A stretch of 64,000 bases of DNA from positions 23,922 to 87,921 of the forward strand of contig CANRPA010000001.1 of the NCBI GenBank assembly GCA_947632395.1, written 5' to 3'. The translations under genes and the position numbers were made by a program. The notes under the pieces are model-generated. The model worked only from the letters and a program-made list of their open reading frames with translations, was not told where the DNA came from and did no database searches. The DNA is from an uncultured Bacilli bacterium. GTDB lineage: Bacteria; Bacillota_I; Bacilli_A; RF39; UBA660. Every line of letters begins with the position of its first letter. Within the stretch, counting starts at the first letter, position 1. This document shows, one piece after another, positions 10,214-63,900 of this stretch.

Positions 10214-10681
10214 ATGAAAGTAAGTTTTGAATATACAAAAAAAGAATATGAAAAATATTTAATAAGATCAAGAAAAGTAAACAATATAGTGTTATTTATA
10301 ATTGGTATAGCAGTATATTTGTTGTTATCCTATAATAAAATATCTTTAATTTATTTACCTTTGTTTATTATAGTTTGTTTATTTATAATAATTTTAATAA
10401 ATAAATTATATTTAGTATGTTATTTTAAAGTTAATCAAATGTTAAATTATAATACATATGGCAAATATATTTTAGAACTTACACCTAATAAATTTTCACT
10501 TACAGTAAATAACTCAAAAACAGATTATAAATATAATAAAATAAAGAAGATAATAGAAAGAAAAAAATATTTTAAAGTCAAATTTGAGGGATTGAGAGAT
10601 TATTTAGTGTTTGAGAAAATAAAATTTAATGAAGATGATTATAATAAAATAATAAAAATGTTTAAAGAAAAAGTTTTATAG
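10214..10681 (+). CDS. small membrane protein, YcxB-like
   Basis: 155 aa with two TM helices and a lysine-rich C-terminus. The start codon abuts the uvrA stop. Confidence 0.35.
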   Translation: MKVSFEYTKKEYEKYLIRSRKVNNIVLFIIGIAVYLLLSYNKISLIYLPLFIIVCLFIIILINKLYLVCYFKVNQMLNYNTYGKYILELTPNKFSLTVNNSKTDYKYNKIKKIIERKKYFKVKFEGLRDYLVFEKIKFNEDDYNKIIKMFKEKVL

Positions 10682-10899
10682 TTTAACTATAATTCTTTTT
10701 ATTATACATAGTTTTTGTTGTGATAACTACTTATTAATTATAGTCTTTATTTACTAAAAGTCGGTAGTAGTCATCTAAATTTAAGTATGAACTTAAGAAT
10801 TTAAAACTTGTCTTGAATTTTGTTTGTATATACTTATAAAAAACTCTATCTTTTTTTTTATCATTTTGTTATAATTATTATAGTAGAGTGTGATGATAG

Positions 10900-11238
10900 A
10901 TGAATAAAAAAGGACAAGCTTTGGTGGAATTTATAATAGTTTTACCTATACTACTTTTAATACTTATATCTATTATAGATTTTGGTAATATAATACATAA
11001 AAAATATGTATTGGAAAATGACCTAGATACAATAGTTAATATGTATGATGCAAATGAATATGATGAAATAAATAATTATATATCTGATAAAGATTTAAAA
11101 ATAGATTATAAAACTGAAGATAAATTTATTACAATAAATGTAAGCAAAAATGTAAATATATTTTCACCTGTACTAATAGGTATGTGGGGAAGAAAATACG
11201 AAATAAAAACAAGTAGGAGTATATATATAAATGAATAA
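10900..11238 (+). CDS. TadE/Flp-type prepilin-like protein (class III signal peptide)
   Basis: MNKKGQALVEFIIVLPILLL fits the prepilin-peptidase site G/xxxxEF (E at +5) followed by a hydrophobic helix, a TadE-like N-terminus. Confidence 0.6.
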   Translation: MNKKGQALVEFIIVLPILLLILISIIDFGNIIHKKYVLENDLDTIVNMYDANEYDEINNYISDKDLKIDYKTEDKFITINVSKNVNIFSPVLIGMWGRKYEIKTSRSIYINE

Positions 11239-11524
11239 AAAAGGACAAGTACTTGTAATCTTCATAATATTCATACCAATAATAATACTTATCTTCACAC
11301 TTATAGTAGATATAGGAAATATGTATATACAAAAAAGAAATATCAGTAATAACTTAAAATACGCAGTAGAATATTCAAATAAAAATAACACAAATATAGA
11401 GGAAATATTAAATAAAAATTTAGATAAAATTAAGATAGAATATAATGATGAAGAAATACAAATAACAAAAAAATATAATGGAATATTTATAAAAAAAGAT
11501 ATAATTGTAAAGATAAAAGGGTGA
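11231..11524 (+). CDS. TadE/Flp-type prepilin-like protein, tandem paralogue
   Basis: MNKKGQVLVIFIIFIPIIIL has the same leader (K-K-G-Q). Its start overlaps the upstream stop codon. Confidence 0.55.
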   Translation: MNKKGQVLVIFIIFIPIIILIFTLIVDIGNMYIQKRNISNNLKYAVEYSNKNNTNIEEILNKNLDKIKIEYNDEEIQITKKYNGIFIKKDIIVKIKG

Positions 11525-11528
11525 TAGT

Positions 11529-12305
11529 ATGGCATTAAATAAGGCAAAAACAATTTTAGTAACATCAGTTAGTGGAGGAGTAGGAAAAACAACTACAGTA
11601 CTTAATTTAGCAGGTATCTTATCTAATTTAGGTAAAAAAACTTTAATATTAGATTTAGATTTTTCATCAGGTGATATTGCTGCTATGCTTAATATAAAAT
11701 ACGATAAAGATATATATAGTTTATATGAAGATTTAAATAATAAAAAATTTACCAATTTTGAAGATTATGTTGCTAAATATGATGAAAATATAAGTGTACT
11801 TCCATCATTAAAAGATCCTAGATTCGCACATAAAATAGGTGGTAAAATACTTGAGGTAATATTATATAAAGCAAGATTGAAATATGATGTTATACTTATG
11901 GATTCATCACATGTACTTACTAATGTAAATTTATTTGCTTTAGATTATAGTGATGAAATACTTTATATAATAAATAATTCTTCAATGAATTTAAAAAATA
12001 TGAAAACCTTTGTTTCAATATTAAATAATATGGAAAAAACAAATTATAAAATTATACTTAATAATTCTAACGATAGAAATAAAGATTACTATGATAAATT
12101 TGATATAAAAAATATAATAAACAAAAATATAAACTATGTAATACCTAGTAATTTTTATCAAAAAAATATAGATAAATATATAATAGAAGGTAAAATACTT
12201 ACATTAGATAAAAATATATTAAAAAAGCAAAAAAGAGCTATTAAAATATTTAATTTAATAGTAAGTGATATACTTGAAGAAAGTAAGGGAGATAAGAATG
12301 TCTAA
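11529..12305 (+). CDS. TadZ/CpaE-like pilus assembly ATPase (MinD/ParA family)
   Basis: Deviant Walker A SGGVGKTT near the N-terminus. 258 aa, with no receiver domain. Confidence 0.7.
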   Translation: MALNKAKTILVTSVSGGVGKTTTVLNLAGILSNLGKKTLILDLDFSSGDIAAMLNIKYDKDIYSLYEDLNNKKFTNFEDYVAKYDENISVLPSLKDPRFAHKIGGKILEVILYKARLKYDVILMDSSHVLTNVNLFALDYSDEILYIINNSSMNLKNMKTFVSILNNMEKTNYKIILNNSNDRNKDYYDKFDIKNIINKNINYVIPSNFYQKNIDKYIIEGKILTLDKNILKKQKRAIKIFNLIVSDILEESKGDKNV

Positions 12306-13611
12306 ATCTTTTGTACAAGAATTTGAAATAGAAGAAAAAAACAATAAATATACTGATATTCCTGATTATGATGTTTTTACTAATAAAAAATTATTAGATG
12401 AACTTAGGGTAAAAATAATTCAAAATATAATAGATAATAGTAAGGGTAAAATAAATTCAAAAGTAGTTAGAAAAGAAATAGATAAAACGTTAGAAGGATA
12501 TGATTTAAGTTTAGTAGAACGTAGTTATATAAATAACTTAATAGATAATGAAATAAATGGCTTTGGACCACTTACAGAATTAATTGAAGATCCAAGTATT
12601 ACAGAAATAATGGTTAATGGTACTAACGATATATATATAGAATTAGATGGAAAAATAATAAAAGATGATAGTATATCATTTATAAATGATGAACACATAA
12701 TAAGGACAACTCAAAGGCTTATTCAACCTATAGGAAAAACAATTGATATAAATAATCCTATGGTGGATGCTAGACTTTCAGATGGTTCTAGACTTAATGC
12801 TATAATAGAGCCATTAAGTTTAAAAGGTCCAGTACTTACTATCCGTAAATTTAGGAGTGAACTTGAAAGCATAGATGACTTTTTAAGAAACGGAACGCTT
12901 ACTCCAAATATGGCAAGATTCATAGATGCTTGTGTTAAAAGCAAAATGAATATAATAGTATGTGGTGGTACAGGTAGTGGTAAAACAACACTTTTAAATG
13001 TAATGTCATCATTTATTACAGATGATGAGAGAATAATAACAATAGAAGATGCGGCAGAATTAAAATTAGAACAACAACATGTAATTTCACTTGAAACTAG
13101 AGGATCAAATTATGAGGGAACTGGAGAAGTAACAATTAGAGATTTAGTTATTAATTCACTTCGTATGAGACCAGATAGAATAATAGTAGGTGAAGTTCGT
13201 GGTAAAGAAGCATTTGACATGCTTCAAGCAATGAATACAGGTCATGAAGGTAGTATGACAACACTTCATGCTAATAGTCCAAAGGATGCATTAAATAGAT
13301 TAGAGACAATGGTACTTATGGCAGTAGAAATACCAATTAGTGCTATAAGAGAATATATAGAAAATGCGATAGATATCGTAATAAATATTTCAAGACTTAC
13401 TGATGGTAAAAGAAAAATTACAAGTATTAGTGAAGTAGTAGGATTTGAAAATGATGAAATAAAGTTAAATGAAATATTTGCGTTTAATCAAACAGGAGTA
13501 AAGAAAGATGGAGAAGTTATAGGAGAATTTGTTAAAAATAATGTAACTCCAGAAATTTATAAAAGAATAAAATCGCGTGGAATAACTAATTTAGCTGATA
13601 TGTTTGAGTGA
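12265..13611 (+). CDS. TadA/CpaF-family secretion ATPase (VirB11-like)
   Basis: Walker A GGTGSGKTT, an Asp box, a His box and the characteristic CpaF N-terminal domain. Confidence 0.85.
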   Translation: MIYLKKVREIRMSKSFVQEFEIEEKNNKYTDIPDYDVFTNKKLLDELRVKIIQNIIDNSKGKINSKVVRKEIDKTLEGYDLSLVERSYINNLIDNEINGFGPLTELIEDPSITEIMVNGTNDIYIELDGKIIKDDSISFINDEHIIRTTQRLIQPIGKTIDINNPMVDARLSDGSRLNAIIEPLSLKGPVLTIRKFRSELESIDDFLRNGTLTPNMARFIDACVKSKMNIIVCGGTGSGKTTLLNVMSSFITDDERIITIEDAAELKLEQQHVISLETRGSNYEGTGEVTIRDLVINSLRMRPDRIIVGEVRGKEAFDMLQAMNTGHEGSMTTLHANSPKDALNRLETMVLMAVEIPISAIREYIENAIDIVINISRLTDGKRKITSISEVVGFENDEIKLNEIFAFNQTGVKKDGEVIGEFVKNNVTPEIYKRIKSRGITNLADMFE

Positions 13612-15109
13612 GGTGAAAAATATGAAGGAGTTAAGTATAGATTATATAGAAATTACAAATGAAGATGTATTAGTTACTTATACTCCTTCTTTAGATGTAA
13701 TTAACTATTCCTATACCATAGAAAAAAATGGAGTAAAAGAACCTCCAGTATTTGTAAATTTAAATAAACAATTAGACATTACTTTAAATGAAACAGGTAC
13801 ATATAAAATAGAAATAATTTCAATTAATAAATTAGGTGAACAAAAAGTTACTACTGGTAATTATAAAATCGATAAAGAGCCACCAGTAATAAATGTAAAA
13901 AACAAGACATTAAAAACGAAAGCAAAGAAATCTATAAATTTATTAGAAAATGTTACAGCAAGCGATAGTAATGATGGAGATTTAACTAATAGTATTAAAA
14001 CTAATATAGATGATCTTAATTTAAACACACCAGGTATAAAAACTATAGAGTATAGCGTAACAGATAAAGCAGGTAATACAACTACTAGTGTTGCTTATCT
14101 AACTGTTAAAGAAAATAATGAAAATTTAATATTATTTGGACAAATAGGAATAGTTATATTATTTTTAGGATTAGTATTATTTTTAATTAAATATATTAAG
14201 AGCATAAAACTAGAAAAAAGATTTTCTAAGTATACAATTAATTCATATAAAAATAAATCAATTTCACTTTTAGATAATATTCATACAGATTATTTAAAAT
14301 TTATAAATAAATTAAGCAAACTACTTAAAAGATCGCCTATTATGAATAATATGGCAAAAAAATATGAAAAATATGATTGTATGTTTGAAAAATATGATAG
14401 CATGGATTTTGTTTCAAGAAAAGTAGTATTTGGCTTAATTTATATAGCGATTGCAATTACAGTTAGTTTAATAGCATCAACAATACTTACATTTGTTGAA
14501 GTTTTAATATCATTTATATTGGGATTCTATATGTTAGATATAATATATATATTAAAGTATTCTAAATATAAAAAGAAAATAGAAAATGATATGCTAAGTG
14601 CAATAACACTTATGAATAATGCTTTTAAAGCAGGTAAAAGCATTATTCAAGCAGTAGAACTTGTTTCAAGAGAACTTAATGGACCTATATCAAAAGAATT
14701 TGAAAGAATAGGTAAAGAAATAATGTATGGCATAGATGTTGATATAGCATTTAAAAGATTTAAAGATAGGGTAAAAATTAAAGAAGCAGTATATTTATCA
14801 TCTAGTTTATCTATATTAAATAAAACAGGTGGTAATATAATTAAAGTATTCGATAAAATAGAAAAAAATGTATATAATCGAAAAAAATTGCAAAATGAAT
14901 TAAAATCACTAACTAGCAGTTCAAAATTAATTACATACGTGTTGATATTTGTACCAATAATATTTATAGTATTTATAGGAATAATAAATATAGGATACTT
15001 TGAACCATTATTTGAACATCCATTAGGTATATTTGTAATATTAATTAGTCTTATAATTTATATTGCATATATTATAATAGTAAAAAAGGCAATGAAAGTA
15101 AAGGTGTAA
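13604..15109 (+). CDS. TadB-like T2SS-F-family membrane protein fused to N-terminal Ig-like (DUF5011-like) domains
   Basis: The C-terminal ~300 aa have GspF/TadB topology (TM, cytoplasmic helical domain, two TMs). The N-terminal ~170 aa have no signal peptide and carry the motif DKEPPVI...ASDSNDGDLT...TPG...Y.VTDKAGNTTT, which is typical of DUF5011 Ig-like domains. Confidence 0.65.
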   Translation: MSEVKNMKELSIDYIEITNEDVLVTYTPSLDVINYSYTIEKNGVKEPPVFVNLNKQLDITLNETGTYKIEIISINKLGEQKVTTGNYKIDKEPPVINVKNKTLKTKAKKSINLLENVTASDSNDGDLTNSIKTNIDDLNLNTPGIKTIEYSVTDKAGNTTTSVAYLTVKENNENLILFGQIGIVILFLGLVLFLIKYIKSIKLEKRFSKYTINSYKNKSISLLDNIHTDYLKFINKLSKLLKRSPIMNNMAKKYEKYDCMFEKYDSMDFVSRKVVFGLIYIAIAITVSLIASTILTFVEVLISFILGFYMLDIIYILKYSKYKKKIENDMLSAITLMNNAFKAGKSIIQAVELVSRELNGPISKEFERIGKEIMYGIDVDIAFKRFKDRVKIKEAVYLSSSLSILNKTGGNIIKVFDKIEKNVYNRKKLQNELKSLTSSSKLITYVLIFVPIIFIVFIGIINIGYFEPLFEHPLGIFVILISLIIYIAYIIIVKKAMKVKV

Positions 15110-15113
15110 TTAT

Positions 15114-15806
15114 ATGCAAAGTATTATAAAAAAAATATTTAGACAAAAAGATTTAAAAAACATAGATAATAAGATAATTATGTTAGGTCAAAATAGAAAA
15201 ATAAAATTTAATACAGTAGAATTTGTGAGTGCTAGAATAATTACTACAGTAATACTCATTGTTCTTATGCTTATATTTAAGACAAAATATTATTTTATAC
15301 CTATTATAGTTATAATTTATTATAATTTATTTTACTACATATTTATTACAAATGAATTAAATAAAAGAGTGAGAAAATTAGAAAGAGAAGCACTTACATT
15401 TTTTGAAATTTTGACTCTTACCTTAGAATCTGGAAGAAATTTAGAAAATTCAATAGAAATAACAGTAAAAAATGTAGATGGTGAATTATCAGATGAATTT
15501 AAAAGAGTCTTAAAAGAAATACAGTATGGAAAATCACTTATGGAATCACTAGAACATTTAAAATTAAGAATTCCATCAGAGACTATAAATAATATTATAT
15601 TAAATATTACTGAAACAAGTATATTTGGTAATAATATTGTAGATTCAATGAATACACAAGTTGATTATTTAAGAGAAAAAGAAATTATGGAAATAAAAGC
15701 ACAAATAAATAAGATACCAAATAAAGTAAGTATTATATCTGTTTTGTTTGTAGTACCACTTATTTTACTTATAATACTTGGTCCATTTATTGTAAATTTT
15801 TTATAG
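15114..15806 (+). CDS. TadC-like T2SS-F-family membrane protein
   Basis: 230 aa with an N-terminal TM, a helical cytoplasmic domain and C-terminal TMs. It directly follows the TadB-like gene. Confidence 0.6.
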   Translation: MQSIIKKIFRQKDLKNIDNKIIMLGQNRKIKFNTVEFVSARIITTVILIVLMLIFKTKYYFIPIIVIIYYNLFYYIFITNELNKRVRKLEREALTFFEILTLTLESGRNLENSIEITVKNVDGELSDEFKRVLKEIQYGKSLMESLEHLKLRIPSETINNIILNITETSIFGNNIVDSMNTQVDYLREKEIMEIKAQINKIPNKVSIISVLFVVPLILLIILGPFIVNFL

Positions 15807-22725: not shown

Positions 22726-24167
22726 AAACAATAATGGATTTAAGAACTGATTTAGATAATAAATTAGTAACAAGTGAAGAATTATTCAAAAAATCTAATG
22801 AACTTGCACATAAATATCAGGATGAATTTAATCCGTTTGTAACTATAATAGATGAGTATAAAAAAGAAGAAAGTGATTCATTACTTAATGGAATACCTTA
22901 TGCATTGAAGGATAATTTTTCAACTAAAGGAATTCTTTCAACTGCTTCTTCTAATATACTTAAAGATTACGTTCCAGTATATGATGCTACTGCATATAAA
23001 AAATTAAAAGCTGCTGGAGCAGTACTTGTTGGGAAAACCGTACTAGATGAACTTGCTATGGGTGGAACAGGAACTACAGGACACACTGGTATTGTTAGAA
23101 ATCCATGGAATAAAAATCACCAAATAGGTGGCTCTTCTGCAGGAAGCGCTGCAGCAGTCGCACTTGGTATAGTACCATTCGCACTTGGTTCAGATACAGG
23201 AGATTCAATTCGTAAACCAGCTGCATTTGGTGGAGTAGTAGGATTTAAACCAACATATGGTAGAATTTCTAGATATGGTCTTTTTGCTTTCGCATCAAGT
23301 TTAGATCATGTAGGTTGTTTTACTAGATGTGTAAGAGATGCTGCAATTGTTACAGATATATTAAAAGGACAAGATGAACGCGATATGACATCTCTTCCTG
23401 ATGAAACAATAAAATATACAGATATGATAGATAATGATATAAAGGGGAAAAAATTATTTTATATCAAAGAACTAACTGATTTAGATATGTATAAAAATTC
23501 AGGTGAAGAAACACTTGAAATATTAAAGAAATTTAAAGATACAATAGAAAAATGTAAAAGTATAGGTTTTGAAGTAGAAGAAGTATCTTTTGATGAAAAA
23601 TTACTTAAGGCAATATATCCTGCATATATGACAATAAGTTGTGCAGAAGCTACAAGTAATAATTCTAACCTTACTGGAATACCATTTGGTCCAAGAGGTG
23701 AAGGAGATAATATAAATGATATTATGTTTGATGCTAGAACAAAGGGATTTAGTGAATTAATCAAAAGAAGATTTATATTAGGAAGTTATATTTTACAAAG
23801 AGAAAATCAAGAAAGATTATTTAAAAATGCAGGAAGACTTAGAAGAATTATAGTAGATAAAATGAATGAATTATATAAAAAATATGATGCTATGATACTT
23901 CCAGCAAGTGGAGGAATCGCTCCTACGTTTGACTCTGAAATAGATAGAATGTCTCCAAGATATTTAATGTTAGAAAATCATATGGCAATAGGAAATTTTG
24001 GTGGATTTCCAAGCATAACAATACCTAATGGATTTGTTAAAAATATGCCAATTGGAATAAATATAACAGGTAGATGCTTTGAAGATGGACTTACATTAAA
24101 TATAGCAAATAAAATAGAAGAAGCTTTAGGCTTTGGCAAAATAATAAAGGAGGAATATGATGTATAA
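22722..24167 (+). CDS. gatA: amidotransferase subunit A (amidase family)
   Basis: Amidase signature GGSSAGSAAAVA and the Ser-cisSer-Lys region. Confidence 0.9.
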   Translation: MKTIMDLRTDLDNKLVTSEELFKKSNELAHKYQDEFNPFVTIIDEYKKEESDSLLNGIPYALKDNFSTKGILSTASSNILKDYVPVYDATAYKKLKAAGAVLVGKTVLDELAMGGTGTTGHTGIVRNPWNKNHQIGGSSAGSAAAVALGIVPFALGSDTGDSIRKPAAFGGVVGFKPTYGRISRYGLFAFASSLDHVGCFTRCVRDAAIVTDILKGQDERDMTSLPDETIKYTDMIDNDIKGKKLFYIKELTDLDMYKNSGEETLEILKKFKDTIEKCKSIGFEVEEVSFDEKLLKAIYPAYMTISCAEATSNNSNLTGIPFGPRGEGDNINDIMFDARTKGFSELIKRRFILGSYILQRENQERLFKNAGRLRRIIVDKMNELYKKYDAMILPASGGIAPTFDSEIDRMSPRYLMLENHMAIGNFGGFPSITIPNGFVKNMPIGINITGRCFEDGLTLNIANKIEEALGFGKIIKEEYDV

Positions 24168-45577: not shown

Positions 45578-46957
45578 ATGGTATTTTCAAGTGTAATTTT
45601 TATATATTATTTTTTACCCATACTTATTGTTTTATATTTTTTGGTTGCAAGTAAATTTAAAAATTTTATTTTATTTTTATTTAGTTTAATATTTTATTTT
45701 TTAGGAGAACCTAAATATATAATTATTTTAATTTCTTCTTGTATAATTAATTATTATTTATCTAAATTATTAGTAAAAAATAAGCATCGAAAATTAATAT
45801 TATTTATAGGTATATCTTATAATGTTATTCAACTTTTAATTTTTAAATACATTGACTTTTTTATAATTAATTTTAATAGTGCTTTTAATTTAAATTTTCC
45901 TTTAACTAAAATTATTATGCCGATTGGGATTAGTTTCTTTACATTTCAAAATTTAGGTTATATAGTTGATGTCTATTTAAAAAAGCATGAGCCATCCAAG
46001 CATTTACTTGATTATATGACATATGTATGTTTATTCCCACAATTAATAGCGGGACCTATTGTAAGATATATGGATATTCAAAATGAATTAACTAATCGTA
46101 AAAGTTCATTTGAAAACATTTCAAAGGGAATAAAAAGATTTATAATTGGTTTGTCTAAAAAGGTTTTAATTGCTAATGTATTAGGGGAATTTGCAAAATT
46201 AATTATTACTCAAACAGTTTTAGCATCGTGGATAAAGCCGATATCATTTACGTTACAAATATATTTTGATTTTTCAGGATATAGTGATATGGCAATTGGT
46301 CTTGGTTTAATATTTGGTTTTAATTTTAAAGAAAACTTTAATTATCCATTGATTGCTAAATCTATAACAGACTTTTGGAGAAGATGGCATATTTCTTTAT
46401 CAAGTTGGTTTAGGGATTATGTATATATTCCTTTAGGAGGAAGTAGAGTAAATAAAATTAAATGGGTTAGAAATTTATTTGTTGTTTGGTTTTTAACAGG
46501 CTTTTGGCACGGCGCTAACTGGAACTTTATTTTATGGGGATTATATTTTTTTGTAATTTTAATTATTGAAAAAATCTTCTTAAAGAAGTATTTGGATAAA
46601 ACAAAAGTTATTAAATACATTTATACTATATTTATAGTAATTATCAGTTTTTTAATTTTTAGTACAGATTCAATTTCAAATATTTTATTAGAACTTAAAA
46701 ATATGTTCTTTATAAATAAAATTCCTTTTACTGATGAAGTAATTATTTATTATTTAAGAAGTTATATGGTTATTTTTGTGATATCTATAATATGCGCAAC
46801 ACCATTAATAAAAATAATAAGCAACAAATTAAAAGAAAGTAAATTAAAAAATATATATTTCTTTTTAGAACCATTTGTTTATCTTTGTTTACTAATTTTA
46901 TCAACTGCATTTTTAGTAGATGCTTCATTTAATCCTTTTTTATATTTTAGATTTTAG
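45578..46957 (+). CDS. MBOAT-family membrane-bound O-acyltransferase (AlgI/DltB/PatA-like)
   Basis: 459 aa with about 10 TM helices, a conserved His in WHGANW and the MBOAT core FRDYVYIPLGGSR. Confidence 0.8.
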   Translation: MVFSSVIFIYYFLPILIVLYFLVASKFKNFILFLFSLIFYFLGEPKYIIILISSCIINYYLSKLLVKNKHRKLILFIGISYNVIQLLIFKYIDFFIINFNSAFNLNFPLTKIIMPIGISFFTFQNLGYIVDVYLKKHEPSKHLLDYMTYVCLFPQLIAGPIVRYMDIQNELTNRKSSFENISKGIKRFIIGLSKKVLIANVLGEFAKLIITQTVLASWIKPISFTLQIYFDFSGYSDMAIGLGLIFGFNFKENFNYPLIAKSITDFWRRWHISLSSWFRDYVYIPLGGSRVNKIKWVRNLFVVWFLTGFWHGANWNFILWGLYFFVILIIEKIFLKKYLDKTKVIKYIYTIFIVIISFLIFSTDSISNILLELKNMFFINKIPFTDEVIIYYLRSYMVIFVISIICATPLIKIISNKLKESKLKNIYFFLEPFVYLCLLILSTAFLVDASFNPFLYFRF

Positions 46958-46967
46958 GTGATTTATT

Positions 46968-48032
46968 ATGAGAGAAAAAATAACAGTAATTATATTTACA
47001 ATTTATATATTTTTGTTTTCTATTTTAGGAATAGTACTCCCTAAAGATAAGTATAGTACCACTGAAAGAAGAAAGTTAAAAGAATTTCCTGAGTTTATAT
47101 TAGATAATACTTATATTAACAAATTAGATGATTATTTACTTGATCATTTTCCATATAGAGATTATTTTAGAAGTGTAAAAGCTAATTTTAATTATAAAAT
47201 TTTATCTAAATTAGATAATAATAAAATAGTTATTAAAGATGATTATATTTTTAAATTAAATTATCCTACAAACAAAAAATCAATCGAATATTATAAAAAA
47301 ACTATCAATAAATTATTAACACATTTTACTGAAAATAATAAAGTTTATATGACTATTGTTCCTGATAAAAATTTTTATTTAAAAGATGAAATTTTATTAA
47401 AACTTGATTACGATTATTTAGAAAATGAAATAAAAGAATTAGATATTAATTATATCGATATAAAAAATCTTTTAACTTTAGAAGATTTCTATAAAACTGA
47501 TACTCATTGGAAACAAGAAAAACTTGAAAAAATAGTTAAAGAATTAAATAATAAAATGGGAACATTATATCAAGAACAAGATTATAAAGAAAATGTCTAT
47601 TCTAACTTTTATGGCGTATATTATGGTGAATCTGCAATTAATAAAAAACCAGATATTTTAATTTACTTAACTAATCCTTTACTAGATTCTTTAAAAGTAA
47701 CTTATTTAGAAAATCCTAGTTTAACAACAATATATAATTTAGATAAATTAAATTCTAAGGATAGTTATGAAGTATTTTTAGATGGCGCGAGTGCATTTAT
47801 TGAAATTACAAATGAAAATAGTCTTACAGACAAGGAATTAGTCATTTTTAGAGATTCTTTTGGTAGTAGTATAACACCACTTTTAACTCCATATTATAAA
47901 AAAATAACTTTAATAGATAATCGTTATATTGATAGTAATCATTTTCTTGAAAAAATAAAATTTGAAAATCAAGATATATTATTTTTATATAGTACATTAT
48001 TAATAAATGAAAGTTATACTTTAAAAGGGTAG
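46968..48032 (+). CDS. DHHW-family protein (AlgJ/AlgX-like partner of MBOAT)
   Basis: N-terminal TM anchor, a DTHW motif (KTDTHWKQE) and a position immediately downstream of the MBOAT gene. Confidence 0.55.
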   Translation: MREKITVIIFTIYIFLFSILGIVLPKDKYSTTERRKLKEFPEFILDNTYINKLDDYLLDHFPYRDYFRSVKANFNYKILSKLDNNKIVIKDDYIFKLNYPTNKKSIEYYKKTINKLLTHFTENNKVYMTIVPDKNFYLKDEILLKLDYDYLENEIKELDINYIDIKNLLTLEDFYKTDTHWKQEKLEKIVKELNNKMGTLYQEQDYKENVYSNFYGVYYGESAINKKPDILIYLTNPLLDSLKVTYLENPSLTTIYNLDKLNSKDSYEVFLDGASAFIEITNENSLTDKELVIFRDSFGSSITPLLTPYYKKITLIDNRYIDSNHFLEKIKFENQDILFLYSTLLINESYTLKG

Positions 48033-48059
48033 ACGATTGACAAAATTATAATTTCATGA

Positions 48060-48075
48060 TATCTTTATAAAGATA
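48060..48075. promoter_or_regulatory. perfect 16-bp palindrome TATCTTTATAAAGATA (candidate operator)
   Basis: It lies between TTGACA (48037-42) and the RBS of the deacetylase gene, and overlaps the predicted -10 position. Confidence 0.4.
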
Positions 48076-48103
48076 GAATTAAGGATGAAGTAAGGAGAAG
48101 GTT

Positions 48104-49363
48104 ATGAAGAAAAAAGTCATATTAATCGTATTATTTTTAATATTAATAAGTTCCCTAACAGTAACTGTTATATTATACAATAAAAATGAAAGAGATAAAA
48201 AAATAGCAGAACAAAAGCGTATTGAAACAGCAATTAATAATATAAAAAAGCATTATAGTAACAATGTAATAACTACAATTGACACTAAATTATATAAAAA
48301 GGACAATGAAGAATATAAGGTAAGTGGAGAAATAAGTAAAGATATTAAAATAACACTTAAAGAAGAGACAATTGATGAAAATACTAAATACTTTTATATT
48401 CCAGAATTAGATTCATATATATCATATAATGATGTAAGTCCAAGTGAGGAAAAAGTAAAAGATGATAGATACAAATATTATATTTCCTTTAATAAAAATA
48501 TAAAAACTAAAGATTCTACTAGTTTTTATGATAAAGATGGAAATCTATTATATACATTAAATAAACCATTTGAATTTAAAGTACTTGTTATGGATACTGA
48601 TAAATATGGAGTTGTATTTAATGATGAATTAGTATATATAAAAACTGATGATGTAGAAGAAGTAATAGATGCTGATAATGGTCAAAGTAATAGATCAAAA
48701 ATTAAAACTCTTTTTTACCATTTTCTATATGATCCACAAAAAGCCGTATGTGATCAAATAATATGTCTTACATTAGATCAATTTGAGGCACAATTAAAAT
48801 ATTTAAATGAAAATGATTATTTTACACTTAAAATGGAAGAACTTGAGATGTATTTAGATGGTAAAATAAATATACCTCAAAAAAGTATTGCGCTAACGAT
48901 TGATGATGCTACAATTATAGATGAGCAAGCCTTAAGATTACTTGAAAAATATGAAATAAATGCTACAGCATTTGTAATAACAGGTTGGGTAGATCTTAAT
49001 ACAGTAAGTTCACCTTATTTGGATTTAGAATCACATACTGATTTAATGCATAATCAATACGAATGTAAAGGAATGGGATTACAAGGTGGAGGAATATTAT
49101 GTCTTCCTGAAAGTAAAGTTTTAGAAGATTTAAGAACTAGCCAAGAAAAACTTGGTGGAAGTAAATATTTTGCATATCCATTCTTCGATTACAATGAAAG
49201 AGCAATTAGACTTTTAAAAGAAGCCGGATTTACAATGGCATTTATAGGTCAAGCAAGCACATATGGTGATTCTTATCCTAAATCAACAGATAAAATGAAA
49301 ATACCAAGATTAGGAATATTTTCAGACACAACTTTAGATGAATTTATTTCATATGTACAATAA
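48104..49363 (+). CDS. polysaccharide deacetylase family protein (NodB domain), membrane-anchored
   Basis: N-terminal TM and a C-terminal NodB domain with the motifs LTIDDAT and ESHTDLMH. Confidence 0.7.
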   Translation: MKKKVILIVLFLILISSLTVTVILYNKNERDKKIAEQKRIETAINNIKKHYSNNVITTIDTKLYKKDNEEYKVSGEISKDIKITLKEETIDENTKYFYIPELDSYISYNDVSPSEEKVKDDRYKYYISFNKNIKTKDSTSFYDKDGNLLYTLNKPFEFKVLVMDTDKYGVVFNDELVYIKTDDVEEVIDADNGQSNRSKIKTLFYHFLYDPQKAVCDQIICLTLDQFEAQLKYLNENDYFTLKMEELEMYLDGKINIPQKSIALTIDDATIIDEQALRLLEKYEINATAFVITGWVDLNTVSSPYLDLESHTDLMHNQYECKGMGLQGGGILCLPESKVLEDLRTSQEKLGGSKYFAYPFFDYNERAIRLLKEAGFTMAFIGQASTYGDSYPKSTDKMKIPRLGIFSDTTLDEFISYVQ

Positions 49364-49377
49364 ATATTTATATTTAC

Positions 49378-49404
49378 AGTAACAAGTTAAAAAAACTTGT
49401 TACT
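49378..49404 (+). terminator. rho-independent terminator after the deacetylase gene
   Basis: GTAACAAGT-TAAAAAA-ACTTGTTAC followed by TTTTATT. Confidence 0.55.
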
Positions 49405-49453
49405 TTTATTGTTAAAAAAAATAAAGTATGTTAGAATAATAGTAGGTGATAAT

Positions 49454-49627
49454 ATGAATGGCTTAAGTAAGAAAGATAAAATAATAGTTTTAATTTTGTA
49501 TTTAATTTTAATTGCATTAATAGTTCTTTTAGTATTTAGTATAGAAAACCAAAGACAAACAATAATTGATAATAATACAACAAATTATTATAGTTATAAT
49601 AATAATTTTAATGATGAATTTATGTAA
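49454..49627 (+). CDS. small single-TM protein
   Basis: MNGLSKKDK followed by a TM helix. AGGTGA RBS. Confidence 0.3.
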   Translation: MNGLSKKDKIIVLILYLILIALIVLLVFSIENQRQTIIDNNTTNYYSYNNNFNDEFM

Positions 49628-49642
49628 TATTGAGGAAATTTT

Positions 49643-50179
49643 ATGAAAAAAATTAAAAGTTCAACTCAAAAAAAATGGATAATTGAAATAATACTATTAT
49701 CATTTGTAATATCAGTTACATTTAGTTTAATATCAGAAACTGCTATACCAAATGTGGGGATAATAATAGGAATATTTATATGTTTAATATTTATAATAAT
49801 AGGAATTATCTTTGATATGGTTGGTGTTTCCGTTACAGCAAGTGATGAAAGTATATTTCATTCAATGTCTAGTCGCAATGTAAAAGGTGCTAAAATGGCA
49901 GTAAAATTAAAAAAGAATGCATCTAAAGTATCTAGTTTTTGCAATGATGTAGTTGGAGATATATGTGGTATTATATCAGGTTCTACTGGAACAGTAATTA
50001 CATTAAAAATAGTGGAAAAGTTTAATTTTAATAATCTTTCAACAACAATTATAATAATGGGAATTATATCTGCAATTACTATAGGTGGTAAAGCAATTGT
50101 TAAAGAATTTGCTATTAAAAGAAGTAATGAAATTTTATTTAGATTTGCAAAAATATTAAATATATTCGATAGAAAGTAG
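49643..50179 (+). CDS. membrane protein with a DUF21/CNNM-like transmembrane domain (no CBS/CorC domains)
   Basis: 178 aa. The profile TASDESIFHSMSSRNVKGAKMAVKLKKN...VVGDICGIISG resembles the DUF21 N-domain of CorC/CNNM transporters. Confidence 0.4.
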   Translation: MKKIKSSTQKKWIIEIILLSFVISVTFSLISETAIPNVGIIIGIFICLIFIIIGIIFDMVGVSVTASDESIFHSMSSRNVKGAKMAVKLKKNASKVSSFCNDVVGDICGIISGSTGTVITLKIVEKFNFNNLSTTIIIMGIISAITIGGKAIVKEFAIKRSNEILFRFAKILNIFDRK

Positions 50180-50186
50180 GTAATAT

Positions 50187-51119
50187 ATGAATAAACGTGG
50201 TTTTACACTTGTAGAACTTTTAGGGGTAATTGTTATTTTAATAATTGTAATCGCTTTAGCATACCCTAGCGTAATATTAGTAATAGATTCTGGTAAAGAG
50301 ACAAGTGAACAACAACAAATAAATGATATACTTATGAGTGCTTATGATTATTCAATAAAAAATACTGAATATTTACCTGATAAAGATGATACAACTTACA
50401 TAACTTTATCACAATTAAAAAATGATGGTTTACTAAAAATAAGTATAATTAATCCAATATCAGAAGAGGAATATTTTGATGATTTAGTTATAAGTATAAA
50501 AAATATTGGATCTGAATATGCTGAAAAAAGTAAATATTCAAAAAAAACAGGTGATTATTTATATACTTTAGAAATAGAAAAAACACAAGAGCAAGATTAC
50601 ATAATAAAAAAACCTACCATAGAACTTATAGGTCTTGATTCTAACTCAAATGATAATTATGTATCTACTATAGATGTAAATACAGATTATGAGGAAGCTA
50701 GATATAAAGCAACTGATAAAAATGGTAAAGATTTAACTGATAAAGTAATAATTAATATACTTTATGATGGTAAAGCAGTAAAAGATATTGATACTACGAA
50801 GGCAGGAATATATTATGTAAATTATACAGTAGTAGATGATGAAGGTTATGCTTCAATGGTCACAAGAAGTATTATCATAACAGATGATATGGAACCAGTT
50901 TTAACTGTTCCAACTTCAACAACAATAAGCATAAATGATAGCTCATTTAATTTACTAGATAAATCAGAAGTTAAATGTTCAGATAATAGTGGTAAATGTG
51001 ATATTACATATACAGGTGAAATAAAATTTGGAACTGCTGGCAAATATGTAATAGTATATACAGCAAAAGATCCAAGTGGTAATACTACCAAAGCAGAAAG
51101 AGTAATAACAGTTCAGTAA
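50187..51119 (+). CDS. type IV pilin-like protein (prepilin-type N-terminal cleavage/methylation domain) with two C-terminal DUF5011-like Ig domains
   Basis: MNKRGFTLVELLGVIVILIIVIALAYPS is a canonical class-III signal peptide (G|FTLVE). The tail contains two repeats of D..P.I......V..G..Y....A.D..G.DLT....G.Y...Y...D..GN. Confidence 0.7.
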   Translation: MNKRGFTLVELLGVIVILIIVIALAYPSVILVIDSGKETSEQQQINDILMSAYDYSIKNTEYLPDKDDTTYITLSQLKNDGLLKISIINPISEEEYFDDLVISIKNIGSEYAEKSKYSKKTGDYLYTLEIEKTQEQDYIIKKPTIELIGLDSNSNDNYVSTIDVNTDYEEARYKATDKNGKDLTDKVIINILYDGKAVKDIDTTKAGIYYVNYTVVDDEGYASMVTRSIIITDDMEPVLTVPTSTTISINDSSFNLLDKSEVKCSDNSGKCDITYTGEIKFGTAGKYVIVYTAKDPSGNTTKAERVITVQ

Positions 51120-61417: not shown

Positions 61418-63124
61418 TTGAAAACTAATAATATTGTAAAAAAAATATTAAATGCAATAGTTAATTTTTTCATGACGATTTCTTTATTTGTCTATAAATT
61501 TATTAAATATGTTTGGTATGGTCTACTATGGCCTTTAGTATTTATAGTAATTTTAATATGTAAATTAATTATTAAAAGAAGAGAAAAAAGAGTCGAAAAA
61601 CTGAAGAAAAATGCTGAGAAAATATATGAAAAAGAAAACAAAAAGAATAATAAAAAAGATAACGAGAAAATAAATTATAATGAACATAAAGATTTAAAAT
61701 CAAAGAAAAAAGGTTTAGGTTATTATATAAATGAAGCATTATCTGCAATTATTTCTATACCTAAAAACATTAAGAAAAAATTTGATAATATTGCAGTTGT
61801 TAAGCAAGCAAAAAATAAAAAAGCATTTGACACTAAAACCATGCTTGTAGATTTCGGTGTTGATGAAAGTCAAGATAAAGATAAAAAAGAAAATGTTGTT
61901 ACATGGGAGTATATAGCAATCAATGAAAATGGCAAAAAAATAAAAGGATATTTTGATGCTGTTTCAAAATCAAATGTTCAATCATTTTTAGTAAATGAAG
62001 GATTAGCTGTCTATAGTATTAGAACAAGTAAAATGATTCAATTTTTACATGGTAAAGTAAAAAATACTGAAGTAAGAATAAAAAATAAAGATTTAATATT
62101 TTTACTTTCGCAATTATCAACATATCTAAAATCTGGTATTACACTTGTTGACTCATTAAATATTTTAATAAGACAAGTTACTAAAAAATCATATAAAAAT
62201 ATTTTAAGAGAAGTTACATATGATCTTACAAGAGGAGAATCTTTTTCATCAGCTTTAGATAAAAGAGGTAGGTCATTTCCAAAACTTTTAATAAATATGG
62301 TTAAAGCATCAGAACTTACTGGTGAATTGCCTGAAACACTTGATGATATGGTTGAGTATTATACTGAAGTAGAGTCTGCAAGAAGAGAAATGATAAGTGC
62401 TCTTACATATCCATCAATGGTATTTATATTTTCACTTGCAGTTGTTACATTTGTTATGATATACGTTGTTCCAAGATTTGTAGAAATATACAATACAATG
62501 GATTCTAATCATATTCCTGCATTTACACTAACAGTAATAAATGTAAGTCATTTCTTGGAGGAAAATGTAATTTGGATAATACTAGCATTTATATTATTTA
62601 TTTTAATACAAGTGTATCTGTATAAAAATGTTAAAGTAATTAGAATATTCTACCAGTGGTTATTTATGCATATACCTATTATTAAAAATGTTATTATATA
62701 TAATGAAGTTACAATGTTCTCTAAAACCTTTGCTTCATTACTGTCACATAATGTATATATAACAGATAGTATGGAGATTTTAAATAGAGTTACAAATAAT
62801 GAAATATATAAAATGATGATATTAGATACTGTAGCAAATCTTGCTAGAGGTGATAAGATATCAACTGCATTTAAGGATCAATGGGCTTTCCCAGTACCAG
62901 CATATGAAATGATAGTAACTGGTGAAAGAACAGGGGAACTAGCAGAAATGATGTCAAGAGTTTCTACATATTATCAAAGTTTACATAAAAATATGGTTAC
63001 AAGAATTAAGTCACTTGTAGAACCAATATTAATAATTTTCTTAACATTCACAGTAGGTATTATATTATTAGCAATTATTATACCAATGTTTACAATGTAT
63101 AGAGAAGTACAAAGATTAGGGTGA
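61418..63124 (+). CDS. pilC: type IV pilus platform protein PilC (T2SS-F family) with a ~140-aa N-terminal TM plus Lys-rich extension
   Basis: The PilC N-domain begins at WEYIAINENGKKIKGYFDA, followed by two GspF repeats and 3 TM helices. The upstream extension is reached from a TTG start after GGTAGGTG. An alternative internal start is MLVDFG. Confidence 0.7.
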   Translation: MKTNNIVKKILNAIVNFFMTISLFVYKFIKYVWYGLLWPLVFIVILICKLIIKRREKRVEKLKKNAEKIYEKENKKNNKKDNEKINYNEHKDLKSKKKGLGYYINEALSAIISIPKNIKKKFDNIAVVKQAKNKKAFDTKTMLVDFGVDESQDKDKKENVVTWEYIAINENGKKIKGYFDAVSKSNVQSFLVNEGLAVYSIRTSKMIQFLHGKVKNTEVRIKNKDLIFLLSQLSTYLKSGITLVDSLNILIRQVTKKSYKNILREVTYDLTRGESFSSALDKRGRSFPKLLINMVKASELTGELPETLDDMVEYYTEVESARREMISALTYPSMVFIFSLAVVTFVMIYVVPRFVEIYNTMDSNHIPAFTLTVINVSHFLEENVIWIILAFILFILIQVYLYKNVKVIRIFYQWLFMHIPIIKNVIIYNEVTMFSKTFASLLSHNVYITDSMEILNRVTNNEIYKMMILDTVANLARGDKISTAFKDQWAFPVPAYEMIVTGERTGELAEMMSRVSTYYQSLHKNMVTRIKSLVEPILIIFLTFTVGIILLAIIIPMFTMYREVQRLG

Positions 63125-63129
63125 TGTAG

Positions 63130-63900
63130 ATGCCTTTTAGCATATTATTATCGTTCTTTATATTAGGAACAATATTTGGATCATTTTATAATGTTGTTGG
63201 ATATAGATTACCAAAGGGGGAGTCTATTCTATATCCAGCATCACATTGTCCTAAGTGTAATCACAAATTAACACCTTTAGAATTGATACCAATTTTATCT
63301 TTTTTATTTCAAGGTGGAAAATGCAAAAATTGTAAAGCTAAAATATCTTGGTTTTATCCAATATTTGAATTTAGTAGTGGAGTATTATTCGCATTATCAT
63401 ATCAAATATTTGGTTTTTCATTAGAGTGTTTGCTTTCAATAGTATTTATTTCCATGCTGCTTATAGTAATTATAAGTGATTATCAAACTATGACTATACC
63501 AGATAGTGTATTAATAGTTTTTTCATTATTTATAATAATAATAAAGTTTTTTATTGTAGGATTTAAAGGTGTTGGAATATCACTATTGAATGGACTGGCA
63601 GCATTTATATTTATGTTTTTACTAAAGTTGTTTGGTGATTTTTTATTTAAGAAAGAATCAATGGGTGGTGGAGATATAAAATTAATGGCAGTTTTTGGTT
63701 TAACCTTAGGATTTCCAATGACGATAGTATCAATTTTTATGTCAGCATTTATAGGTCTACCAATATCACTTATAATATTACATAAGAATTCATCACATGA
63801 AATTCCATATGGACCATTTTTATCGATATCAGCAATTATCGTAATTTTATCTAAATTGGATATAAATACAATAATTAAATTTTTAACGTTTGGAAAATAG
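63130..63900 (+). CDS. pilD: prepilin peptidase (A24 family, PilD)
   Basis: N-terminal zinc-binding CPKC...CKNC tetracysteine domain and catalytic Asp-containing TM segments (ISDYQT..., GGGDIKL). Confidence 0.85.
   Translation: MPFSILLSFFILGTIFGSFYNVVGYRLPKGESILYPASHCPKCNHKLTPLELIPILSFLFQGGKCKNCKAKISWFYPIFEFSSGVLFALSYQIFGFSLECLLSIVFISMLLIVIISDYQTMTIPDSVLIVFSLFIIIIKFFIVGFKGVGISLLNGLAAFIFMFLLKLFGDFLFKKESMGGGDIKLMAVFGLTLGFPMTIVSIFMSAFIGLPISLIILHKNSSHEIPYGPFLSISAIIVILSKLDINTIIKFLTFGK

Follow-up and report, generated by a model that had tools for sequence, protein, structure and literature searches.

In the present work we analysed a TadB-like platform protein which carries two immunoglobulin (Ig)-like domains in front of its membrane-embedded part. 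The gene lies on a 64,000-nt stretch of DNA (in the following referred to as the window; positions 23,922 to 87,921 of contig CANRPA010000001.1, GenBank assembly GCA_947632395.1, 25% G+C) from an uncultured Bacilli bacterium of RF39, an order with reduced genomes (PMC12306168). It occupies positions 13622..15109 on the + strand, which also carries the Tad, pilin, PilC/GspF-type and PilD genes described below, and encodes 495 amino acids (aa): two Ig-like domains, then five transmembrane (TM) helices with a single T2SSF domain. The fusion of the Ig domains to TadB is real and is kept throughout the lineage. With a probability of about 0.65, the protein is best explained as a normal five-helix TadB of a monoderm Tad-type (type IVc) machine, whose extracytoplasmic N-terminus has been lengthened by the two Ig-like domains.

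The likely start of the gene is the ATG at position 13622, which is preceded at a distance of 7 nt by the ribosome-binding site GAGGTG, and a 495-aa protein identical to this reading is present in the public protein collection (P0001). For these two reasons the 495-aa numbering is used here, while Pfam positions refer to a 501-aa reading. The TTG at position 13604, which is the first possible start in the list of open reading frames (ORFs), is probably not the true one. Public records label the relatives of the protein just as 'type II secretion system F family protein', and NCBIfam holds no model specific to the Ig-bearing TadB.

A first-pass annotation of this DNA had assigned a DUF5011-like Ig domain to the N-terminus of the TadB-like protein. 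This assignment is borne out by Pfam, where PF16403 (Bact_surface_Ig-like, formerly DUF5011) matches aa 116-162 of the 501-aa reading with 31.8 bits (cut-off 27). The match marks the second domain of the ectodomain (ectodomain 2, aa 85-165, 13874..14116). N-terminal to it lies a more divergent beta-sandwich domain which had been overlooked (ectodomain 1, aa 1-84, 13622..13873) and for which no Pfam match was obtained, so that the ectodomain is in fact a tandem. Prediction of the 170-residue N-terminus with AlphaFold2 (AF2) yielded two beta-sandwich domains with a predicted local distance difference test (pLDDT) score of 91.6; the strands of ectodomain 1 span residues 8-83 with pLDDT values of about 90-96. 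For the full-length protein the pLDDT is 79.1.

The nearest solved relatives of the ectodomain are mostly extracellular or surface proteins, namely ZmpB, chitinase Ig domains, Rib domains, InlK and cadherins. Hereof, a PDB sequence search with the profile of the TadB family matched C. perfringens ZmpB (7JS4, E 9e-12; 7JRL; 7JRM), the Big_3 domain of B. cereus bacillolysin (2KPN), Moritella chitinase 60 and internalin K. All of these matches run via the Ig part and all concern extracellular proteins; no solved TadB-type platform was matched by this search. Foldseek returned the same proteins plus Rib, FN3 and cadherin tandems, with ectodomain 2 superimposing on 2kpn, 7jrl and 9fbo at a root-mean-square deviation of 2.1-2.5 Å and 20-29% identity. 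The likeness to PF16403 surface proteins such as ZmpB (7JS4/7JRL) and bacillolysin (2KPN) thus comprises both sequence and fold, with profile E values from 9e-12 to 1e-6 and 25-29% identity. The setting differs, however: in the TadB-like protein the domain makes up the N-tail of a polytopic membrane protein, whereas the surface proteins, being enzymes or adhesins in which it serves as a spacer, carry signal peptides and are secreted. No ligand-binding signature was found in the ectodomain, and ectodomain 1 shows no sequence similarity to other proteins of the window.

To judge the reality of the fusion we turned to its relatives. A search for homologues yielded 1688 proteins. The 120 top-ranking ones represent 90%-identity clusters that share 51-80% identity with the query and are nearly all 488-500 aa long. 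According to precomputed Pfam annotation, most of these 120 clusters list PF16403 together with PF00482, and the remainder list PF00482 alone or with PF02494. In a profile scan of one genome per species with the family alignment as query, a relative was found to be encoded in 518 of 599 candidate stretches; the same scan with the single protein as query gave no matches. In all 80 loci that were fetched, the Ig part and the TadB part form one uninterrupted ORF without an N-terminal hydrophobic segment. The gene order TadE1-TadE2-TadZ-TadA-TadB-TadC-MurC is complete in 65 of these loci and present in partial versions in the other 15, which we attribute mainly to contig ends. The source records are metagenome-assembled genomes (MAGs) of uncultured gut 'Bacilli', 'Tenericutes' or 'Mollicutes' from human, rabbit, mouse and ruminant hosts, and among the records of the relatives are a circular assembly of 1.26 Mb and a chromosome-level one of 1.49 Mb. 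As a separate observation, the same Bacilli-type Tad operon occurs in MAGs labelled Bacteroidaceae, Muribaculaceae or Ignavibacteriales (L004, L035, L038, L048 and others), which are probably mis-binned contigs or mislabelled records.

The first-pass annotation had left it to synteny whether the fusion is conserved or the product of a frameshift or gene fusion in this strain. A secreted Ig protein joined to a standard TadB by assembly, frameshift or gene calling is practically excluded as an explanation, since the same single ORF is seen in 80 independent loci and in more than 100 clusters from different assemblies; in none of the 80 loci does a separate upstream gene followed by a standard TadB take its place. 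A hidden upstream signal peptide or separate gene was rejected as well. The stop-to-stop frame opens only at position 13595, within the end of tadA, which terminates at 13611 in another frame, 8 nt into the ORF of the TadB-like gene, and there is therefore no room for a signal peptide or for the start of a separate gene. In agreement with the first-pass annotation, a signal peptide was found neither under either start reading nor in any family member examined.

The degree of conservation differs along the protein. Among 81 family members the mean pairwise identity amounts to 0.37 for domain 1, 0.42 for domain 2 and 0.69 for the T2SSF domain, which is the most conserved region. Ectodomain 2 is present in 80 of 80 loci, and ectodomain 1 is missing in L012, L015, P0107, P0112, P0115, P0116 and P0263.

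Hydropathy analysis reveals five hydrophobic segments in the TadB-like protein. The first of them, TM1 (aa 169-191, 14126..14194), reaches a Kyte-Doolittle maximum of 2.78 and follows directly on the ectodomain (aa 1-165), which places the Ig domain ahead of the first TM helix, as had been noted in the first pass. TM1 is predicted to act as a reverse signal-anchor running from outside to inside. According to the AF2 model and the family alignment it continues as a single helix into a strongly conserved juxtamembrane motif, SIKLEKRFSKYTINS, which together with a linker makes up a K/R-rich region predicted to be cytoplasmic (aa 192-267, 14195..14422). The linker leads into a helical hairpin (TM2a/TM2b, aa 268-313, 14423..14560), whose two arms are located at residues 268-288 and 293-313 by hydropathy and at residues 260-284 and 291-336 in the AF2 model; the same hairpin occurs in the TadC of this locus and in canonical TadBs. 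It is followed by the helical T2SSF domain (aa 314-438, 14561..14935), predicted to be the cytoplasmic, ATPase-facing part, for which PF00482 gives 54.6 bits (cut-off 25.2) in a single stretch at aa 334-458 of the 501-aa reading. Two further helices seen by hydropathy, TM3 (aa 439-461) and TM4 (aa 469-489), cover positions 14936..15088 and precede a short K-rich C-terminus predicted to be cytoplasmic.

On family average, 1.6 K+R per 15 residues are found before TM1 vs 4.9 after it. The loop between TM1 and TM2a holds a family mean of 16.9 K+R vs 6.6 D+E, the short loops TM2a-TM2b and TM3-TM4 are almost without K or R, the C-terminus is basic, and the ectodomain is net acidic (15 K+R vs 24 D+E). 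This family pattern obeys the positive-inside rule, and the N-terminus is therefore predicted to be outside. A second argument comes from helix parity: the Cyt (T2SSF) domains of platform proteins have been shown experimentally to be cytoplasmic (PMC10191384), and as three helices lie between the Ig tandem and the T2SSF domain, the tandem is placed outside by parity as well. Canonical TadBs provide the third argument. Searching plasmids by tblastn with the core (aa 165-495) as query, we retrieved TadBs of annotated Tad loci from Alkaliphilus (318 aa) and Rhizobium (317 aa), which show the same five-segment layout and charge pattern and open at a TM helix followed by the K/R-rich linker. Hence, the N-terminus of TadB is already predicted to be outside in canonical proteins. 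The Ig tandem is thus most likely located on the outer face of the membrane, with strong in-silico support from the positive-inside rule, helix parity and analogy.

Judged by its sequence, the protein would consequently be an ordinary five-helix TadB core with a 165-residue add-on grafted at an end which is already outside. It resembles Aggregatibacter TadB and Caulobacter CpaG in having one T2SSF domain, in the location of its gene between the TadA/CpaF ATPase gene and a second single-domain platform gene, and in its succession of N-terminal TM, K/R-rich linker, hairpin, cytoplasmic bundle and two C-terminal helices. It differs from them by the tandem Ig-like ectodomain of 165 residues before TM1 and by its monoderm-type locus, which is devoid of secretin, RcpC/CpaB, TadD, Flp and TadV. 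The first-pass annotation had seen a choice between an unusual membrane topology and a cytoplasmic Ig domain; given the predicted outside location of the canonical TadB N-terminus, this choice is not forced. Ig domains residing in the cytoplasm, where they would bind TadA or TadZ while TM1 is reversed or does not span the membrane, would fit with the lack of a signal peptide in every family member and with the rarity of long N-tail export. Such an arrangement would nevertheless expose the K/R-rich linker to the outside, contrary to the positive-inside rule; with three helices in between, the T2SSF domain would come to lie outside as well, contrary to the known location of Cyt domains. Since, in addition, the same TM1 opens canonical TadBs and the domain finds its nearest structural relatives mostly among extracellular or surface proteins, we regard a cytoplasmic location as very improbable.

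An exhaustive profile search of 1.84 billion representatives, of which the best 150 matches were examined, shows how the ectodomain is distributed among relatives. These 150 matches include 18 full-length fusions of 478-508 aa and about 48 proteins of 304-349 aa which start at TM1, with their residue 2-21 aligned to profile position 168-180. One such Ig-less relative (P0279) reads MKSSDIILYTILIMMLIIVIWLIYSYFKSIKLEKRLAKYSINS and hereby retains SIKLEKR..KYSINS, the juxtamembrane motif seen in the fusion family. Among the relatives inspected, this motif is intact in P0279 and recognisable in P0263. Intermediate forms are found as well: P0257 (417 aa) possesses domain 1 only, while P0263 (415 aa), L012 and L015 possess domain 2 only. 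The ectodomain is modular across relatives, which carry both domains, domain 1 only, domain 2 only or neither.

The modularity, together with the continuous helix of TM1 and its strongly conserved juxtamembrane motif, could be taken to mean that the ectodomain is a sensor, in which contact with a ligand or surface would be relayed through TM1 and the motif to regulate pilus assembly. The motif is, however, equally conserved in P0279, which has no ectodomain at all, and the ectodomain bears no ligand-binding signature. Because the motif also occurs in ectodomain-less relatives and is thus a core feature of TadB, a sensor role is less likely, and we consider it improbable overall.

The first-pass annotation had further reported that the same domain occurs twice in a type IV pilin-like protein of the window, and had taken this as a hint at a functional link between two pilus systems. 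The pilin gene is located at 50187..51119 and encodes a modular type IV pilin, with the leader MNKRG ahead of FTLVE, a pilin module and then two PF16403 domains (about 50664-50879 and 50883-51116). PF16403 indeed matches in two stretches with 57.4 bits. The N_methyl signature was found at aa 2-26 (PF07963, 27.7 bits vs 21.2; TIGR02532, 17.4 bits vs 16.3), and the protein has the features of a class III signal peptide, i.e. a short basic leader ending in Gly, a hydrophobic alpha1 and a Glu at +5. The pilin family is conserved, with 300 matches of the same architecture. In common with the modular pilins of the PilB type from Streptococcus sanguinis (PMC8179133), the protein bears extra modules on the C-terminus of the pilin module; unlike those, the modules are two PF16403 Ig-like domains and not vWA (von Willebrand factor A) or lectin domains.

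The similarity between the two proteins itself stands. The peptide segments quoted in the first pass are present in both translations, and BLASTP aligns the TadB N-terminus with the second pilin repeat at E 4e-5 (29% identity over 118 aa) and with the first repeat at E 0.003. From 34 family members a hidden Markov model (HMM) of the TadB Ig domain was derived; run against all six-frame ORF fragments of the window, it detected the pilin only (E 4.8e-7, both repeats). The comparison of the two families by hhalign is likewise significant, with a probability of 97.3% and an E value of 2e-11 over 115 columns; on the TadB side the alignment covers the last strands of domain 1 and the whole of domain 2, on the pilin side the end of Ig1 and the complete Ig2. 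As to what this similarity means, the pilin scores 57 bits with the generic PF16403 model vs 24.6 bits with the TadB-specific profile, and about 60 of the best 150 library matches mentioned above are proteins of 600-7440 aa with 5-40 PF16403-type repeats. Given how widespread the domain is in surface proteins, and given the better fit of the pilin to the generic model, the shared PF16403 means little by itself, and a functional link between the two systems is not supported by it.

If the shared Ig module nonetheless reflected coupling, the TadB ectodomain would dock the Ig-bearing pilin or pilins in general through contacts between Ig domains, so that the Tad machine would handle the pilin at 50187, or the two systems would be physically linked. 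Several observations could be read in this way, namely the lack of an own major pilin and peptidase in the Tad locus, the conservation of both proteins in the same lineage (P0049 and P0228 lie on one 229-kb contig of a relative), the pairing of tandem with tandem by hhalign, and the leader MNK[KR]G shared by the TadE-like proteins and the pilin in a window in which only a single, PilD-type peptidase was seen. That one prepilin peptidase can serve more than one system is known (PMC6668835). The homology is, on the other hand, at family level only, a PilC-type platform and PilD are encoded 10 kb from the pilin, the conserved neighbourhood of the pilin is unrelated to Tad genes, and some TadB variants lack domain 2 or have no Ig domain at all. 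Taken together with the abundance of PF16403 in surface proteins, this makes coupling decidedly unlikely in our view.

Returning to the reading of an ordinary TadB with an extended outer N-terminus, the following mode of action can be proposed. TM1 would serve as reverse signal-anchor and bring the acidic N-tail of 165 residues across the membrane, no cleavable signal peptide being involved. Both the K/R-rich linker and the T2SSF domain would remain in the cytoplasm, where the latter would engage the TadA ATPase, and the Ig tandem would end up on the external membrane surface, close to the exit of the filament from the TadB/TadC platform. There, the ectodomain could act as a structural accessory, either as guide or spacer for the nascent filament or as contact to the wall or to a ligand. 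Such an accessory function would be the most economical reading of its role, for which we argue with considerable reserve.

The diderm Tad machines offer a comparison in this respect. Here, the CpaG/CpaH platform is a trimer of heterodimers and is surrounded by CpaB, a separate TM-anchored periplasmic protein (PMC13170226). RcpC, the Pseudomonas homologue of CpaB, forms a dodecameric conduit (PMC12307814), and RcpC/CpaB has been proposed to guide the pilus (PMC13170226; PMC12307814). As the monoderm locus has no protein of the RcpC/CpaB type, nothing of the machine apart from pilins would lie outside the membrane except the TadB ectodomain. RcpC/CpaB and the ectodomain would be alike in position, both featuring an N-terminal TM anchor and beta-rich domains beside the platform, which are extracytoplasmic in RcpC/CpaB and predicted to be so in TadB. 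RcpC is, in contrast, a separate protein forming a dodecameric ring, whereas the domains described here are fused to the platform, with about three copies expected; no homology is claimed. A bolder extension of this idea would be that, in these wall-bearing gut Bacilli with small genomes, the platform itself supplies the extracellular part. Three ectodomains would then form a tripod or guide around the emerging filament or a dock for Ig-bearing pilins, constituting a fused, minimal functional counterpart of the complex which serves alignment in the periplasm of diderm machines (RcpC/CpaB, PilNOP). Its folded N-tail of 165 residues would be exported in an unusual way, without a signal peptide. 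We give this extension a small chance of being correct.

Several points weigh against the favoured explanation. The outside location follows entirely from the positive-inside rule, helix parity and analogy. The three TadB copies to be expected, i.e. six Ig domains, could not close a ring in the manner of RcpC/CpaB, and the likeness to these proteins would therefore be one of position and not of equivalence. Neither a Flp-type major pilin nor a TadV-type prepilin peptidase was found in the Tad locus, the stretch 10681-11524 included, or elsewhere in the 64-kb window. What remains odd, finally, is the crossing of the membrane by a folded N-tail of 165 residues without a signal peptide, which the predicted topology would entail. 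Bacteria seldom export long N-tails in this manner, and the tail in question probably folds fast. The classic case is reportedly E. coli ProW, said to have been described by Whitley et al. in 1994, with a periplasmic N-tail of about 100 residues and no signal peptide. Its translocation depends on YidC (PMC3225971). ProW resembles the TadB-like protein in being a polytopic membrane protein with a long N-tail that lacks a cleavable signal peptide, a feature which is predicted in our case; the two proteins are unrelated, and the tail of the TadB-like protein is longer and consists of two folded beta-sandwich domains.

The gene is part of a compact Tad operon, all genes of which are oriented in the same direction. 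The operon opens with a TadE-like pseudopilin (TadE1, 10900..11238; PF07811 TadE, 40.5 bits; leader MNKKG ahead of QALVEF) and a TadE/TadG-like pseudopilin (TadE2, 11231..11524; leader MNKKG ahead of QVLVIF), both conserved in synteny. TadZ and TadE components of a Tad system are hence present, the profile matches of TadE2 (PF13400/PF07811) being weak and below cut-off. TadZ is represented by a TadZ/CpaE-like ParA/MinD ATPase (11529..12305; PF13614, PF01656 and MinD-type NCBIfam matches). Directly in front of the TadB-like gene lies the gene for a TadA/CpaF-type secretion ATPase (12265..13611; PF00437, 209 bits), which reaches 321 bits with the TadA family model TIGR03819 and so stays below the cut-off set for this model (373). 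With the GTG given in the ORF list as its start, tadA shares 41 nt (12265-12305) with tadZ; translation may in truth begin 12 codons further downstream, at an in-frame Met (MSKSF...). On the other side the TadB-like gene adjoins the gene for the second platform protein, which is TadC-like (15114..15806, 230 aa), has one T2SSF domain (PF00482, 65.4 bits) and lacks an ectodomain. murC is located directly 3' of it.

The pilin gene lies outside any pilus operon. Its neighbourhood (45578-51119; L082) is conserved: the gene follows a CNNM-like membrane protein of 178 aa and envelope-polysaccharide genes (MBOAT, deacetylase, glycosyltransferases), and is itself followed by parE-parC. Across 32 family members the second Ig domain of the pilin contains an invariant C-x-DNSG-x-C pair (Cys264 and Cys271; 50976-50999), probably a disulphide loop; at the corresponding place the TadB Ig domain reads ASD..DGDLT and has no cysteine.

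The likely natural partners of the pilin are encoded 10 kb away. They comprise a PilC/GspF-type platform protein with two Cyt domains (61418..63124, 568 aa; TIGR02120 GspF, E 6e-80, aa 163-561), which belongs to the other, type IVa pilus (T4aP)/Com-like system, and a PilD-type bifunctional prepilin peptidase (63130..63900; PF06750 and PF01478), the only prepilin peptidase seen in the window. The leader MNK[KR]G is common to TadE1, TadE2 and the Ig-bearing pilin, and the sequences suggest that one peptidase may serve both pilus systems. The PilC/GspF-type platform carries an N-terminal extension of 160 residues, composed of a hydrophobic segment (about aa 20-52) and a very Lys-rich stretch. Both platform proteins of the window thus possess N-terminal add-ons, which are different in kind.

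In the literature we found no description of an Ig-bearing TadB or of a platform protein with a folded external domain. Platform proteins have been described as having almost nothing outside the membrane, with three helices and a small loop (PMC10191384). As far as can be judged in silico, the Ig-bearing TadB would represent an undescribed and modest variation on a known machine, which is lineage-wide, modular and probably surface-exposed. Its practical weight is limited for now, and what it marks is a conserved protein, predicted to be exposed at the surface, of a gut lineage which is abundant and uncultured. The external module would give a handle for labelling or purifying the machine, and the protein family would constitute a natural test case for the export of long N-tails without a signal peptide. 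No other core component of type IV filament machines is as poorly understood as the platform proteins, and one which bears a folded external module throughout a clade could reveal in what way monoderm Tad machines cope with the wall without alignment proteins.

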